Assembly (NCBI GenBank): GCA_963847445.1 | Contig: CAWJZV010000030.1 | Span: 32,001-96,000, forward strand | DNA from: an uncultured delta proteobacterium | GTDB taxonomy: Bacteria; Desulfobacterota; Binatia; UBA9968 | Reading direction: 5' to 3' | DNA length: 64,000 nucleotides | Shown here: positions 17,714-23,871 of the stretch, one piece after another | Position numbering within the stretch: position 1 is the stretch's first letter | Layout of the letters: each line of letters starts with the position of its first letter | The notes under the pieces: model-generated | Databases searched by the model: none | Told to the model about the DNA's origin: nothing | What the model saw: the letters and a program-made list of their open reading frames with translations, nothing else | Position numbers and translations under genes: made by a program

Positions 17714-18185
17714 CTAACTTTGCGCTTTCAGAAAATCCATCACGGCTTCAGGATGCTCCTCGGCCTTTTTAACAGTCGTCCAGTGCTTGATCACGTCGCC
17801 TTTGGGATCGATCACGACCGTGGAACGGATCGTGCCCTGCACCTCTTTGCCGTACATCATCTTCTTGCCGAAGGCGCCGTATTTTTTCATCACCTCGGTC
17901 TTGGGATCTGAAAGCAATATGAAGGGCAATTTATAACTTCTCGACGAACTTGTTGTGGGACTCGATGCTATCCTTACTGACACCGAGAACGACCGTTCCG
18001 GATTTCTTCAATGCAGCATTCAAATCGCGAAATCCGCAGGCTTCTTTGGTGCAACCGGGCGTGTTGTCCTTTGGATAAAAATAAATCACCACGGTTTTGC
18101 CTTTGTAGTCGTCCAGTGAATGCGTCTTGCCATCGTTGCCTTCCAGGCTAAATGCCGGCGCTTTCTTGCCTTCTAAACTTGCCAT
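17714..18185 (-). CDS. bcp: Peroxiredoxin BCP/PrxQ, Cys form (frameshift ~17935)
   Basis: [37 protein letters not shown]. Confidence 0.93.
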
Positions 18186-19374: not shown

Positions 19375-20736
19375 TCAGTCAGTGACGCAGCGAAACTTGG
19401 CGAACACATAGGGATAGTGCGCTTGATACCAATTGCGAAAACTTGGCCGCAGCAGTGCCGCATCGGTGGCCCAGGACGCGCCTTTGACGACAAAATGTTT
19501 GCCGTCGAAAAAATCCTTGGAATAGTCGGGATAGGTCGTCATGTAGGGCGTGAACCCCGGCAGCGGTGCAAACGGTGTATCGGTCAGCTCCCAACCATTG
19601 CCGACCAGCTCTTGAACTCCCCAGCGGCTAGCACCCGCGGGATGTGAACCGACCGGCTGCGGCGACCATGCGCCAAAGTTGAAGTTGCCATGGCGGGCCG
19701 CAGGCTCGGCATCGCCCCAAGGATACGCCGACTCCCGTTCGTCTGGACCGTAGTAGGCGGCGCGCTGATATTCGGCCTCGGTCGGCAAGCGCTTGCCGCG
19801 CCACGCGGCATAGGCACGCGCTTCAGCCAGACTTACGTAGACCGGCCAACTGGCAACTTGCTCCAGCGGAAATTGGTCGAACATCGCACGGTATGACCAG
19901 GTGTCATCCTGTTTGAACCAACCGGTCGGATGTTGTTTCTTCTCAAGTTCTTTCCAGTGCCAATCATCCTCGCGCCAGTAGCGGCGCGCCGCGTAGCCAC
20001 CGGAAAGAACAAACTCGAGATATTCGCCATTGGTAACCGGCAAAGAGTCCATCGCGAAGCCTGCGACATCAACCGTGATCTCGGAGAACTCATTGTCCCA
20101 GCCAAAAGTGATATCTTCTAATCGCGCCCCCAACCGGGCTCTGCCTGGGGGAATGCGAATACTCTCCGCTCTTGCGGCGCGCCCGAATGCGTAACGGGCA
20201 AGACTCGCGCGGCCGAACTTTATCGCCGGGCGCCATCTGCTGCATCATGTAGAGCAAGGTCTCTTGATGCATGTATTCATGCTCCAAGATCAGCTCAAAG
20301 ACGCGCCCGCCTTGGGCCAACAGATCGGTAGAACGGCAATAGCCGAGCGCATCAGTCGACTCTAAGAGAGAGCGCCGGACTTTGTCACGATACTCGAGGG
20401 TCTCACCAAGGCTGGGCCATTGATCCGGTACTTCCGGGTGCCAGTGGCATTCGCCGGTGTCGACGTCGGGATCGATGCCGCGGCAGAACAGATCGTCAAA
20501 ATAAGCATTGAACAGACGGCCAGTGCAGAATGCCGCCGCAAACCTGGTTCCAGGAAAACGCCGGCAAATGACCGATATAAAAAATAAACGGATGACGCCA
20601 AACGATCGGCTTGGTCAAACGTTTGGCCGGTGCCAACGATGGCGAAAATCTTGTCTGAACGCGCCCAGGCATCGACCAACCTGTCACGCAACTGCTCGGC
20701 AGCGCTCGGACCGCGGCTCTTTAACGGCAGTGCCAT
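19375..20736 (-). CDS. EgtB/OvoA/SenA-superfamily non-heme iron sulfoxide (or selenoxide) synthase-like protein: DinB_2 + FGE-sulfatase domains, frameshifted
   Basis: RHPFIFYIGHLPAF, EHEYMHQETLLYM (His triad), FGWDNE, RLPTEAEY, LVGNGWE, RPSFRNWYQAHYPY; RBS GGAGG. Confidence 0.88.
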
Positions 20737-20748
20737 AACTCGGTACCT

Positions 20749-20785
20749 CCATTAATTAGCTATATACTAAATAGGAATTAGCTAT
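20749..20785. promoter_or_regulatory. LysR-type operator: perfect ATAG-N7-CTAT (20771-20785) plus a half-site 22 bp closer to the gene
   Basis: ATAGGAATTAGCTAT; direct repeat AATTAGCTAT at 20754-20763 and 20776-20785, immediately upstream of the egtB-like start. Confidence 0.7.
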
Positions 20786-20829
20786 GTAAGACCGCGGAGG
20801 TAAAATTTCGATGAAAAAAATGCCGCAGA

Positions 20830-21742
20830 TTATCGGTGTTTGAGAAAATCGCGGAAAGCTTGGGCGATGGGATGGAACGGCCGGCGGCTATGAAAGACTT
20901 GGTAGAAGTTGCGTTCGAGTTTCAGGCCACGGATCGGCACTTCGACGATGCTGCCTTGATCGAGCTCATGGCGAATCGAGATGCGCGATAAAATCGAAAA
21001 GCCGTAACCGGCCATCAGGGCTCCCTTGACGGCTTCCGTGCTGCCAAGCTCCATGGTGATGTTCAAAAGGTCGTGGGCGGGCGGTTTGCGTTTGACCGAG
21101 CAATTGCCGGATGGAATCCAACGTCCCCGAGCCATGTTCGCGTGAAATGAATCGTTCACTGCGCAGGTCCGCGACTTCGATCGCTTTACAGCGGCTCCAT
21201 GGATGGCCTTTGGGCACGGCGACGACCATTTCGTCATCCCAAATCTTTTCGAAACTAAGTCTAGGATCGTCGCCTTTGAAGCCGACGAAGCCGATCTCGA
21301 CCTTGCCATCCAAGAGATCGGCGACCACACCGGCGGAATCGCCAATGCGCAGGATCGGTTTTACCTGGGGAAACTTTTTGATGAACTCGCCGAGCTTTTG
21401 CGGCAGGAGATATTCGCCGGGAATGCTGCTGCCGCCGACCCAAAGCTCGCCGCTGAGAGTGCCGTGAAATTGCTCCACCGCGGCGACGGTTTCGCGTTTG
21501 AAGGCGAGTAGATTCTTCGCCCGTTCGGCGAGCATGAGGCCCAACGGCGTCAGACTGATCTTGCCCGGCATGCGGTAGAGCAGTTTGCCACCCACCGCTT
21601 CTTCGAGCTCTTGGACATGAGCGCTGATGGTGGGCTGGCGCAGCGAGAGCAGCTCGGCAGCCTGAGAAAAACTCTTATGTTCAGCGACCCAGTAGAAAAT
21701 TTCTAATTTGTGGAGATCGAGGTCGGCTTTGATTTTCGCCAT
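20830..21742 (-). CDS. LysR-family regulator (resembles the selenium-metabolism-associated, HrsM-like subfamily), frameshift ~21090
   Basis: HTH SFSQAAELLSLRQPTISAHVQELE; GGSSIPGEYLLP, REHGSGT, ELGSTEAVK. Confidence 0.9.
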
Positions 21743-21762
21743 GGAACAGGAAAAGCTTTGTC

Positions 21763-21808
21763 GCTGAGGGAGCGCGCCATTACAAACAATCGGCCGCGCT
21801 CCCTCAGC
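21763..21808 (-). terminator. GC-rich hairpin between the Sec-peroxiredoxin and LysR genes (terminator or processing stem)
   Basis: GCTGAGGGAGCGCG(CC)...GGCCGCGCTCCCTCAGC stem; weak U tract. Confidence 0.5.
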
Positions 21809-21822
21809 TAGGGTTTGACTAC

Positions 21823-22290
21823 TTACTTACCGAGGAATTCCAACACTTCCGCCGGATGGGCGCCGGCGTCAGTGACAGGAATCCAATGCTTCTTAATCGT
21901 GCCATCGGGGCCGATCAATGCGGTCGAGCGGATCGTCCCTTCCGAGACTTCGCCCGCGGCATTTTTGCGCGGTCCCCAGGCGCCATAGGCTTTCATGGTT
22001 TCTTTCTGCTGGTCGGCTAAGAGCACGAACGGCAGGTTGAACTTGTTGATGAACTGATTGTGAGAGTCGATGCCATCCGGGCTGACACCTACAACCACGG
22101 TATTGGCTTTCGTCACGGTATCGATAGCGTCGCGGAACCCGCACGCTTCTTTGGTTCAGCCAGGTGTGTCGTCTTTCGGATAAAACCACAGAATGACGTT
22201 TTTGCCGGCGTATTCCGCCAGCGAATGTTGCTTGCCGTCGCTCCCCGCCAAAGTGAACGCCGGCGCTTTTTGCCCTTCAAGTCCTGCCAT
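21823..22290 (-). CDS. bcp: Selenocysteine-containing peroxiredoxin (BCP/PrxQ), 155 aa, Sec at codon 45
   Basis: GGAGG + ATG 22290; MAGLEGQKAPAFTL...WFYPKDDTPG-TGA(22158-22156)-TKEACGFRD continues in frame into ORF 21823..22116; TGA aligns to the peroxidatic Cys of the paralog. Confidence 0.9.
22127..22146 (-). promoter_or_regulatory. Candidate bacterial SECIS hairpin
   Basis: GCGU-GCGG-GUU-CCGC-G-ACGC begins 9 nt after UGA; the G-containing apical loop lies 17 nt downstream of UGA. Confidence 0.65.
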
Positions 22291-22309
22291 GAAGCACCTC
22301 CGTATTAAG

Positions 22310-22324
22310 ATAGTGTTTGTCTAT
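22310..22324. promoter_or_regulatory. Perfect ATAG-N7-CTAT LysR-type operator upstream of Sec-peroxiredoxin/LysR
   Basis: ATAGTGTTTGTCTAT, 20 bp upstream of ATG 22290. Confidence 0.7.
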
Positions 22325-22370
22325 CACACCGATAATCTATCTATCAATGATCGAGGACCGGCCATTGGCA

Positions 22371-22399
22371 TTGTCAACGGCAATGCTTGACGGTATATT
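22371..22399 (+). promoter_or_regulatory. Sigma70-like promoter for ygfZ-like gene
   Basis: TTGTCA-N17-TATATT. Confidence 0.45.
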
Positions 22400-22408
22400 T
22401 TCGCAACT

Positions 22409-23578
22409 ATGGCAAAGCGATCGACCCTATCGGATTTGCACGAACGCCAAGGGGCGACTTTTATCGAACGGGACGGCTGGCTATTGCCCGACCATTTCGG
22501 CGATCCGGCGAGCGAGTACAATTCGGTTCGTGAATCCGCCGGCCTGTTCGACCTCGCCAATCGCGCCATGCTGCAATTCACCGGCGAGGACCGGCTATCC
22601 TATCTGCAAGGCATGCTATCCAATGATCTGCGCCCGCTTAAAATGTTCGATGGCCAGCAGGCGACGATTCTGACGCAGCAGGGCAAGGTGGTCGCCGATG
22701 TTCGCGTACTCTGCTCCTTGAACTCTTTTTACCTGGATTTCTGGGAGCCGCTCAAGGAAAAGATTCTCACCCATCTCAATCGCTATCTGGTCGCCGATGA
22801 CGTAGAGATCCATGATCCCAATGAGCAATGGAAAATGCTTTCGCTGCAAGGGCCGCGGGCGCAAGTGATGCTTGATCAAGTGTTTGCCAATGCCGAGCTG
22901 CCGGCGCACGCGAATCACCATGGCATGGTGCAATTCGACGGCACTCCGGTCTGCGTCGTGCGCGCCGATCGCACGGGCCATGACGGCTTCGATCTGATCG
23001 TGCAAACTTCTCAGCTCCTAACCTTTGCCCAACGCCTGACCGAGCTCGGCGCGGCCTGGGTCGGCGCACAGGCGCAGAATATCTTGCGCGTCGAAGCCGG
23101 TATGCCTCGTTACGGCGTCGATTTCTCCGAAGATAATCTGCTTCTTGAAGTTGCCCTGGATGACGCCGTGAGTTTCACCAAGGGCTGTTATTTGGGCCAG
23201 GAAGTCGTCGAGCGCATCCGCTCGCGCGGCCATGTCAACAAGAAGCTATGCGGGCTCTTGCTCGATGGCGACACCCCGGCAAGCCCTGGCGACAGGATCA
23301 GCGCCAGCGGCAAAGAGGTTGGCCAGATTACCAGCTCCGTCGCCTCCCTCGCCCTCCAGCGGCCTATTGCCTTGGGCTATGTCAACAAGGACTGCTGGAC
23401 GCCGGGCACCAAGTTGGCGGTAAGCCATGGCGGCAGTGAATTCGCGCGCGACGATAACCTGCAAGACCGATCGTCCCCGCTGCACACCCTGGCCCTTGAA
23501 TCCATGTCTCAACTCCGTATATTAGGCGGAAATTTGCTCCAGCTCAGAAAGGAACTTCGGCAATGGCCAATTTCGTAA
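22409..23578 (+). CDS. ygfZ: YgfZ/GcvT-family folate-binding aminomethyltransferase-like protein (true stop probably earlier; C-terminal frameshift)
   Basis: KGCYLGQE motif, LRVEAGMPRYG, GLFDL. Confidence 0.85.
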   Translation: MAKRSTLSDLHERQGATFIERDGWLLPDHFGDPASEYNSVRESAGLFDLANRAMLQFTGEDRLSYLQGMLSNDLRPLKMFDGQQATILTQQGKVVADVRVLCSLNSFYLDFWEPLKEKILTHLNRYLVADDVEIHDPNEQWKMLSLQGPRAQVMLDQVFANAELPAHANHHGMVQFDGTPVCVVRADRTGHDGFDLIVQTSQLLTFAQRLTELGAAWVGAQAQNILRVEAGMPRYGVDFSEDNLLLEVALDDAVSFTKGCYLGQEVVERIRSRGHVNKKLCGLLLDGDTPASPGDRISASGKEVGQITSSVASLALQRPIALGYVNKDCWTPGTKLAVSHGGSEFARDDNLQDRSSPLHTLALESMSQLRILGGNLLQLRKELRQWPIS

Positions 23579-23871
23579 AAGTCTGCAAAACCGATGAGGT
23601 CAAAGGCGGTTGCGGCAAAAGCTTAGAGATCGACGGCAAAGCCATCGGCGTGTTCAATGTCGACGGCAAGTTCTACGCGATCAACGATGTCTGCGGCCAC
23701 CGCGGCGGCCCGCTCGCCGAAGGCGAGATGGATGGCACCACCGTGATCTGTCCCTGGCATGGCTGGCGCTACAACGTCACCACCGGCGAAAACGAATTGT
23801 TGCCGGCTCTGCCCACGGAAAAGTATGAAGTCCAGGTCGAAGGCGACGACGTACTGGTCGATTTAGGTTAG
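23563..23871 (+). CDS. Rieske [2Fe-2S] ferredoxin
   Basis: CGHRGGPL...CPWHGWRY. Confidence 0.93.
   Translation: MANFVKVCKTDEVKGGCGKSLEIDGKAIGVFNVDGKFYAINDVCGHRGGPLAEGEMDGTTVICPWHGWRYNVTTGENELLPALPTEKYEVQVEGDDVLVDLG

Follow-up and report, generated by a model that had tools for sequence, protein, structure and literature searches.

A probable selenocysteine-containing BCP/PrxQ-type peroxiredoxin with a SECIS-like hairpin inside its coding sequence in an uncultured delta proteobacterium

On the minus strand of the window, by which we mean the whole stretch of 64,000 nucleotides analysed here, direct translation gives a single frame that runs from an ATG at position 22290 to a TAA stop ending at 21823. 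The frame has 155 codons before the stop, requires no indel, and contains a sole internal TGA, at codon 45 (Table 1). The sequence-only reading of this DNA had claimed such an uninterrupted frame together with a start codon backed by a ribosome-binding site, and both are borne out, the former by the translation and the latter by a GGAGG motif 6 nt upstream of the ATG. It is to be noted that the orthologs described below share the start Met of this gene, with MAGLEGQ or MANLEGQ in the tblastn alignment. The same reading had remarked that only the tail of the gene appears among the open reading frames, and indeed the program-made list has only a 97-aa product, 21823..22116, which begins at an internal GTG and whose translation lacks the active site. 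Past the stop codon lies a GC-rich inverted repeat, which from its sequence is a possible candidate for a hairpin that ends or stabilises the transcript; a terminator scan made no call on it because the repeat is not followed by a T-run.

Table 1. Features of the peroxiredoxin locus, in positions of the window.
Feature	Position	Strand	Basis
Complete CDS of a probable Sec-containing BCP/PrxQ peroxiredoxin	21823..22290	-	One frame with one internal TGA; PF00578 E 1.1e-36, PF08534 E 3.7e-22
UGA codon 45 at the peroxidatic position, very probably read as Sec	22156..22158	-	Column conservation; TGC or TGT in Cys-form homologs
Shine-Dalgarno-like GGAGG, 6 nt before the start codon (ATG at 22290)	22297..22301	-	Seen in sequence
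Putative SECIS hairpin within the CDS	22123..22149 (core stem 22146..22127; loop GUU 22138..22136)	-	Folding, criteria, synonymous constraint
13-bp GC-rich inverted repeat CTGAGGGAGCGCG ... CGCGCTCCCTCAG, 16 nt past the stop codon	21764..21807	-	Seen in sequence

To what kind of protein does this frame correspond? If codon 45 is read through, the product matches the Pfam family PF00578 (AhpC/TSA) over residues 6-134 with 125.9 bits against a cut-off of 26, and PF08534 (Redoxin) matches as well. Among solved proteins, its best relatives are BCP-type peroxiredoxins, namely 3drn, 5enu, the 5iiz series and 3gkk. The residues of the predicted active site are P38-K-D-D-T42-P-G-U45 (P38-x3-T42-x2-U45), Cys50, and R121 in the segment GTIRSTALI, and both the motif and the Arg align to the solved BCPs. 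These Cys-type BCP/PrxQ proteins share with the present one the fold family, the length, the stretch FYPKDDTPG-C-T(K/R/T)EA, the Arg of RST and a second Cys at +5, and differ from it in having Cys at the peroxidatic site, where the present protein would have Sec. The closest NCBIfam models are PrxQ (NF053650), with 155.4 bits against a cut-off of 260, and BCP (NF006960), with 116 against 140, so that both scores stay below the level of equivalog membership. Judged from these matches, the protein is a BCP/PrxQ-subfamily peroxiredoxin at the family level only and an equivalog of neither model. The proposal made from the sequence alone, that a BCP peroxiredoxin has UGA at its peroxidatic Cys, agrees with the Pfam score and the solved relatives in its first part, and in its second with the finding that the column of the TGA holds a Cys codon, TGC or TGT, in the Cys-form homologs. 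The resolving Cys stands five residues past the peroxidatic residue (U45 and C50 in U-TKEA-C), a spacing that we take to be that of atypical 2-Cys enzymes such as the BCP of E. coli, and which defines one class of BCPs. In the excerpted text of PMC13188914, the peroxidatic motif is given as PxxxTxxC/U.

The TGA is not a peculiarity of one genome. Orthologs were sought with the read-through protein in 41 genomes, including the own genome (G000), and matches were accepted at E <= 1e-20. Within the genus, 19 of 24 genomes have a full-length ortholog with exactly one TGA, 79-98% identical; in another family of the order, 10 of 11 genomes have one, with identities of 42-47%. One of the 19, in G003, is split by a frame break, and another, L030, belongs to an unpublished genome, G005, which is counted among the genus rows but on which no result depends. 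In all of these orthologs (29/29) the tblastn alignment places the TGA in the peroxidatic column. The five remaining genomes of the genus, whose completeness is 65, 82, 92, 97 and 98%, gave no match at E <= 1e-20. The orthologs of the other family have Arg instead of the resolving Cys in nine of ten cases. A wider scan of prokaryotes, in which each species is represented by one genome, kept 80 loci, of which 70 have TGA in the column and 10 have TGC or TGT; these counts are not independent of those from the 41 genomes, since many of the loci with at least 78% identity come from the same genomes. A search for homologs with aligned U or C had been suggested along with the original proposal, and both states are thus found, Cys being present also in homologs from the databases. 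Loci of 42-59% identity are titled Acidobacteriota (Pyrinomonadaceae, Chloracidobacterium), Gemmatimonadota, Latescibacterota, Vulcanimicrobiota/Baltobacteraceae, Dormiibacterota, Planctomycetota and Polyangia. The labels that depositors give to metagenome-assembled genomes (MAGs) are, however, unreliable, as sequences 79-95% identical to the own one bear titles as varied as delta proteobacterium, Syntrophobacter sp. SbD2, Binatia, Verrucomicrobiia and Chloroflexota, and therefore the spread of the Sec form over phyla is to be taken as a lead rather than a result.

Bacterial decoding of UGA as Sec would require a SECIS element just downstream of the codon. Starting 10 nt past the UGA, RNA folding gives a hairpin (AA)GCGUGCGG-GUU-CCGC(G)ACGC(U.AU) with a minimum free energy (MFE) of -13.0 kcal/mol, which overlaps codons 48-56 including that of the resolving Cys50 (22143..22141). 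A stem-GUU-stem inside the coding sequence had been pointed out in the sequence-only reading, with folding as one way to check it, and this is the hairpin that folding returns. According to the excerpted text of PMC13188914, the apical loop of a bSECIS measures 3-9 nt and its upper stem 4-16 bp; G occurs among the first two loop nucleotides, usually with G or U after it; the UGA and the loop are 16-37 nt apart; and the MFE is -7.5 kcal/mol or lower. The present hairpin lies within all four ranges: its loop is the 3-nt GUU, its upper stem has 4 bp and sits on a bulged G, the loop is 17 nt from the UGA, and the energy is that given above; loop, stem, G-U start, spacing and energy are all alike to the bSECIS consensus, which that excerpt gives after the 2005 model of Zhang and Gladyshev. 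If only the MFE structure is considered, 61 of 81 Sec sequences pass these criteria in comparison with 2 of 13 Cys sequences, and the 20 Sec sequences that fail are mostly labelled Acidobacteriota and have a different, shifted hairpin. The hairpins of 84 Sec sequences have a median energy of -11.1 kcal/mol versus -4.2 for those of the 13 Cys sequences, a comparison that lacks phylogenetic independence and in which relatedness and GC content act as confounders.

Stability alone is weak evidence for such a hairpin and does not beat chance here: the plain fold of 71 nt has z = -0.36 against dinucleotide shuffles, 60 of 200 of which are at least as stable. Because this z-score is not significant, we relied on tests of coding constraint, namely recoding and synonymous variation. 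When the segment was recoded synonymously 5000 times with the genome's own codon usage, the recodings averaged -7.8 +/- 2.4 kcal/mol and 2.4% of them folded as well as the native sequence; the peptide A-C-G-F-R-D-A predisposes to pairing by itself. A scan of window positions 21000-23000 with Rfam at E <= 10 returned no SECIS family, and what it did return was junk (mir-550, snoRNAs and so on) far below the gathering scores.

The strongest evidence for the hairpin comes from comparison. Synonymous variation, measured as the share of sequence pairs with the same residue but a different codon for it, amounts to 0.01 at codons 49-55 versus 0.48 at the other 140 degenerate codons among 28 unique coding sequences of the genus, and this is the lowest value of all 7-codon windows in the gene. 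The 28 sequences come from ungapped matches that begin at residue 1 and reach 75% identity or more, a definition that leaves out L071, L038/L074, L076 and L039/L077. The codons for A49-C50-G51-F52-R53-D54-A55 are fixed by both protein and RNA structure: they are frozen at their synonymous sites because they encode the segment of the resolving Cys and, at the same time, the stem of the putative SECIS. Thus the gene offers a clean example of dual coding, in which seven codons serve both the protein and the SECIS stem. The hairpin of the own gene is identical to that of 19 relatives. When 81 Sec sequences are placed in one fixed register, 72% of the cells are paired, compared with 27-56% for controls slid along the alignment, and three of the pairs show double changes between GC and AU, which amount to 26 cells; none of 500 shuffles reaches this number. 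This alignment, like the counts of criteria above, leaves out L018, L019 and L020, Prx-like paralogs of the own genome with about 30% identity. The paired fraction in the common register is only 72% because the hairpins of the other family, those labelled Vulcanimicrobiota and many of those labelled Acidobacteriota are shifted by one to a few nucleotides, and the alignment was not re-aligned by structure so as to avoid fitting it to the hypothesis. For example, in the clade of the other family the hairpin reads GGCCCGUA-GUA-UACGGG(A)CC, a different sequence that is shifted by one nucleotide and shows a compensatory change of its own, from U-A to C-G. The Cys paralog on the minus strand at ~17729-18185 reads gcc tgc gga ttt cgc gat ttg in this segment and has no hairpin; the original observation that the paralog uses different synonymous codons which disrupt the stem is therefore correct.

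Taken together, the gene very probably encodes a genuine selenoprotein, that is, a BCP/PrxQ-type peroxiredoxin with peroxidatic Sec45 and resolving Cys50, whose UGA would be decoded by SelB with the in-frame SECIS. The protein would be a thioredoxin-fold peroxiredoxin in which Sec (U45) has replaced the peroxidatic Cys. From its anatomy and its conservation, the hairpin past the UGA is expected to act as a bacterial SECIS and to recruit SelB-GTP with Sec-tRNA(Sec), and UGA-45 would thereby be decoded as Sec instead of as a stop. If the chemistry follows that of the family, T42 and R121 would activate the selenolate of U45 for its attack on the peroxide, from which a selenenic acid would arise that Cys50 would resolve into an intramolecular selenenylsulfide, and a thioredoxin-type reductant would then regenerate the enzyme as in atypical 2-Cys BCP.

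Does the organism have the machinery for such decoding? The sequence-only reading had made its proposal depend on selABC in the genome. Of these, selA and selB are present, and so is selD, selB with four +1 insertions; an intact selC, the gene for tRNA-Sec, was not found. The three genes are clustered at 191-196 kb of contig C14 of the own genome. In profile searches, selA (C14:191714-192742) scores 495.7 bits and has no stops, and the wing domain of selB scores 75.4 bits. selD (C14:194887-195726; 360.3 bits) has a TGA of its own in the context SAG-U-AAKLGPGDL, and the arrangement selA-selB-selD(U) recurs in four relatives. With regard to selC, tRNA-Sec is present in all five relatives tested, with 73-78 bits, and the best Rfam hits in the own assembly are tRNA-Ser of at most 45 bits against a cut-off of 47; as the assembly is 91.8% complete, selC is counted as not found rather than absent. 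According to aragorn, all the Rfam tRNA-Sec matches in the genome are tRNA-Ser, Leu, Tyr, Gly or Phe, and the one 'tRNA-SeC' that aragorn itself calls, at C2:139122-139203, was rejected for its mismatched acceptor stem and its lack of any Rfam support. The gene is found neither beside the sel cluster nor at the place syntenic with the tRNA-Sec of G014 (C14:202.5-208.5 kb). What is found is a 3′ fragment with the last 30-34 nt of tRNA-Sec, at C12:77569-77602, directly past the gene of a 396-aa tyrosine integrase with Arm-DNA-binding and Phage_integrase domains. The fragment looks like the att site of an element with tRNA-Sec as its target, and an intact copy would then lie beyond the assembled part, as contig C12 ends 21 kb past the fragment.

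We considered four alternatives to a genuine selenoprotein, namely that the trait is decaying, that the TGA is a sequencing or assembly error, that it is a true stop, and that it is recoded but not to Sec, and regard even all of them together as improbable. The one that survives best, itself quite unlikely, is that Sec decoding is decaying in this organism, with selB frameshifted and tRNA-Sec disrupted by the element, so that translation ends at the TGA and a gene that is functional in the relatives has recently become a pseudogene here. It draws on the tRNA-Sec fragment beside the integrase gene, in an assembly that has no intact selC, and on the frame of selB, which compared with G014 and G021 has four +1 insertions (C14:193251, 193417, 193808 and 194124), in contrast to the intact ORFs of 638-653 aa in four relatives. 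Such insertions are, however, not restricted to selB. In the 6.5 kb around the peroxiredoxin gene there are seven +1 insertions specific to the own assembly, about one per kb, and none is inside the gene. Contigs from four independent runs of four studies (X1, X2, X7 and X10) were compared with window positions 20100-23600: six of the six insertions tested are missing in the contigs of X1 and X2, those of X10 lack the insertion at five of six places and do not cover the sixth, and X7 covers none of the places. Since the insertions are common in unrelated genes and are missing from independent contigs, the assembly carries systematic +1 insertion errors, and the earlier statement that the assembly errors visible here are frameshifts holds. 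As the breaks in selB are of the same type, they are most probably errors of assembly as well, and the organism would then have an intact selB. Decay is also at odds with the intact selA and selD, the latter retaining its own TGA, with the hairpin of the peroxiredoxin gene, which has stayed identical to that of the relatives, and with the incompleteness of the assembly and the nearby end of C12, beyond which an intact tRNA-Sec could be located. In such error-prone MAGs, this case illustrates how assembly indels can be told from real decay of the Sec machinery.

If the assembly is demonstrably error-prone, might the TGA itself be an error for TGC or TGT in an ordinary Cys-type BCP? This is hardly credible, because the errors observed are single-base insertions rather than substitutions, and none of them falls in this gene. 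In addition, 29 other genomes have TGA in the same column, including, by the names of the contigs, assemblies made with other assemblers, and the hairpin is specific to the TGA forms. Contigs that bridge the TGA site exist in X1 (record 1), X2 (record 12) and X10 (record 9); the substitutions listed for the comparison with these runs cover positions up to 22021. As for RNA, only 0.06-0.08 of the words were present in runs X15-X20.

Another explanation, to which we assign next to no weight, is that the TGA is a true stop, either in a nonsense pseudogene or as the end of a 44-aa peptide, with or without expression of the 97-aa tail from the internal GTG. Gene callers do give exactly this 97-aa product (P0077, with 132 member sequences), but a nonsense codon at the catalytic site would not stay in one column down to 42% identity with open and conserved peroxiredoxin flanks on both sides, and the tail has no active site. 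In other systems, Cys may replace Sec at UGA under selenium limitation. That UGA-45 is recoded to a residue other than Sec, be it Cys carried by tRNA-Sec at low selenium or a residue from near-cognate read-through, has nonetheless a negligible chance, considering that dedicated machinery including a Sec-form selD is encoded and that Cys-form paralogs and orthologs use ordinary Cys codons, which would make UGA and SECIS for Cys redundant.

How does a genuine Sec-BCP relate to what is already known? PrxU of Eubacterium acidaminophilum is a Sec-peroxiredoxin reportedly shown as such by experiment by Sohling and co-workers in 2001. Like the present protein, it has Sec at the peroxidatic position. 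The PrxU model NF040737, which has a length of 233, matches the present protein of ~155 aa weakly, with 41 bits against a cut-off of 270, and this score far under the cut-off indicates that the two belong to different peroxiredoxin subfamilies, the present one being BCP/PrxQ. In the available part of PMC1794560 (2006), 12 Sec-peroxiredoxin sequences and five Cys-to-Sec events are reported, and its Table 3 lists one 'peroxiredoxin' selenoprotein for Syntrophobacter fumaroxidans together with several other Deltaproteobacteria. In the excerpt of PMC13188914 (2026), Prx stands in the table of verified prokaryotic selenoproteins, above the group 'Predicted with high confidence', and the 2001 paper on PrxU is cited there as reference 83. 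Sec-peroxiredoxins have thus been in print since 2001-2006, and the present protein adds a member to an established family of bacterial selenoproteins. The bacterial Sec-Prx family of these surveys (PF00578, T/SxxU), as it appears in the excerpts, is of the same Pfam family, has Sec in PxxxTxxU with the SECIS directly after it within the CDS, and occurs in selenoprotein-rich Deltaproteobacteria. Those excerpts differ from the present account in that they do not separate BCP/PrxQ-type from AhpC-type Sec-Prx and name neither the genus studied here nor its sequence. Among the open-access papers listed, judged on titles and the openings of abstracts, none deals with a bacterial Sec-BCP/PrxQ by that name; the supplementary tables of PMC1794560 may already include the orthologs found here.

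In protein databases the Sec orthologs take a peculiar form. In a collection of 5.8 billion proteins, the sole cluster with more than 90% identity is the 97-aa tail (P0077, 97% identity). Full-length clusters at 66-78% identity, among those with sequence inspected, carry Cys at position 45, and a singleton of 85% identity has Arg there. Because public sets hold the close orthologs only as the 97-aa tail, the Sec orthologs are systematically truncated by gene callers, which agrees in a broad sense with the sequence-only reading, where the selenoprotein was called unannotated. The practical value of the finding therefore lies in annotation, as the antioxidant repertoire and the selenium dependence of uncultured soil and sediment bacteria are under-counted. 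The lineage is related to Syntrophobacter, and its relatives are known for very large selenoproteomes. For specialists a Sec-BCP here is well supported but unsurprising.

It is tempting to go further, though what follows is a tentative possibility that we would rather doubt than believe: the BCP/PrxQ-type Sec-Prx might form one coherent and very widespread lineage, in which the SECIS always lies over the region of the resolving Cys, Sec and Cys have been exchanged repeatedly, and a '1-Sec' sister family does without the resolving Cys. By depositor labels, such a lineage may reach soil phyla such as Acidobacteriota, Gemmatimonadota, Vulcanimicrobiota, Dormiibacterota, Planctomycetota and Latescibacterota, beyond the classical anaerobic groups rich in selenoproteins. 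If this is true, the lineage would be a natural replicated experiment on when selenium pays in a peroxiredoxin, and one largely hidden from the protein databases because of the truncation by gene callers. The own genome has further Prx-like genes with TGA at the same catalytic column, and within the genus a second paralog, located ~4 kb away, contains a single TGA in 5 genomes and no TGA in another 10.

The stretch around the UGA codon and the SECIS hairpin of the Sec-BCP gene is strongly conserved at the nucleotide level, since several short contigs that belong to other organisms in the independent runs align near window 22127-22188 over no more than 30-45 nt around these two elements and then diverge. 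As for the protein, the resolving Cys is kept by L040 alone among ten Sec-BCP orthologs from the other family of the same order, and the remaining nine (L041-L049) carry Arg in its place (U-TKEA-R), a replacement which, judged from the sequences, implies that they would work by a "1-Sec" mechanism without an intramolecular selenenylsulfide. Another full-length homolog, from ENA (P0001 in the public protein collection; 659-nt contig, 85% identity), shows Arg where the peroxidatic residue is expected (TPG-R-TKEAC). It represents one cluster with two sequences, and its Arg could come from a change of TGA to CGA or AGA, or could be an error.

A second BCP paralog with about 61-65% identity is located about 3.6 kb downstream of the Sec-BCP gene, and its peroxidatic codon is TGC (Cys). 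In the source assembly (G000), there is one change of frame around codon 83 of this paralog, likely a further indel of the assembly. Its counterpart in relatives is free of stops in 10 genomes versus one TGA in 5, which suggests flips between Sec and Cys within the genus; in one of these five (L072, genome G011), the TGA falls in the peroxidatic column and the gene has its own hairpin. Five additional Prx-like genes of the source assembly also have one in-frame TGA apiece, and in three of them (L018, L019 and L020) this TGA aligns with the peroxidatic residue, the surrounding sequences being DWTPT-U-S/TKE and DFSPT-U-IKD. Probably, the thioredoxin-fold selenoproteome of this genome is rich.

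The order of the LysR-family regulator, Sec-BCP and GcvT-like genes is syntenic in four relatives, with nucleotide identity of 71-80%, and it may be guessed that the LysR protein is a redox regulator. The frames of this LysR gene and of selB are broken by single-base insertions, which are specific to the source assembly and occur there at about 1-2 per kb; further genes are probably broken in the same way. All six insertions tested are missing from independent contigs, and "pseudogene" calls in this assembly that rest on frameshifts are to be distrusted.

Features in the window and on contigs (C) of the source assembly
Feature	Location	Strand
LysR-family regulator, directly downstream of Sec-BCP, same strand	window 20966-21742	-
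GcvT-like aminomethyltransferase, upstream of Sec-BCP, divergent	window 22409-23578	+
Second BCP paralog, Cys form	window about 17729-18185 (C30:49729-50185)	-
Prx-like, one in-frame TGA	C27:94635-95042	
Prx-like, one in-frame TGA	C15:16319-16744	
Prx-like, one in-frame TGA	C30:181587-181910 (outside window)	
Prx-like, one in-frame TGA	C17:138731-139057	
Prx-like, one in-frame TGA	C16:43487-43819	
Own-specific single-base insertions	window about 20199-20204, 20511-20514, 20619-20621, 21094-21097, 23445-23447, 23460-23461	
Own-specific single-base insertions, selB	C14:193251, 193417, 193808, 194124	
tRNA-Sec 3' fragment, 30-34 nt	C12:77569-77602	-
Tyrosine integrase, 396 aa (Arm-DNA-bind_2, Phage_integrase)	L136 (extracted locus):1651-2841	-

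An intact tRNA-Sec was not found in the source assembly, where only the 3' part is present. This fragment is located about 80 nt downstream of the stop codon of the tyrosine integrase gene and looks like the att site of a mobile element integrating into tRNA-Sec.
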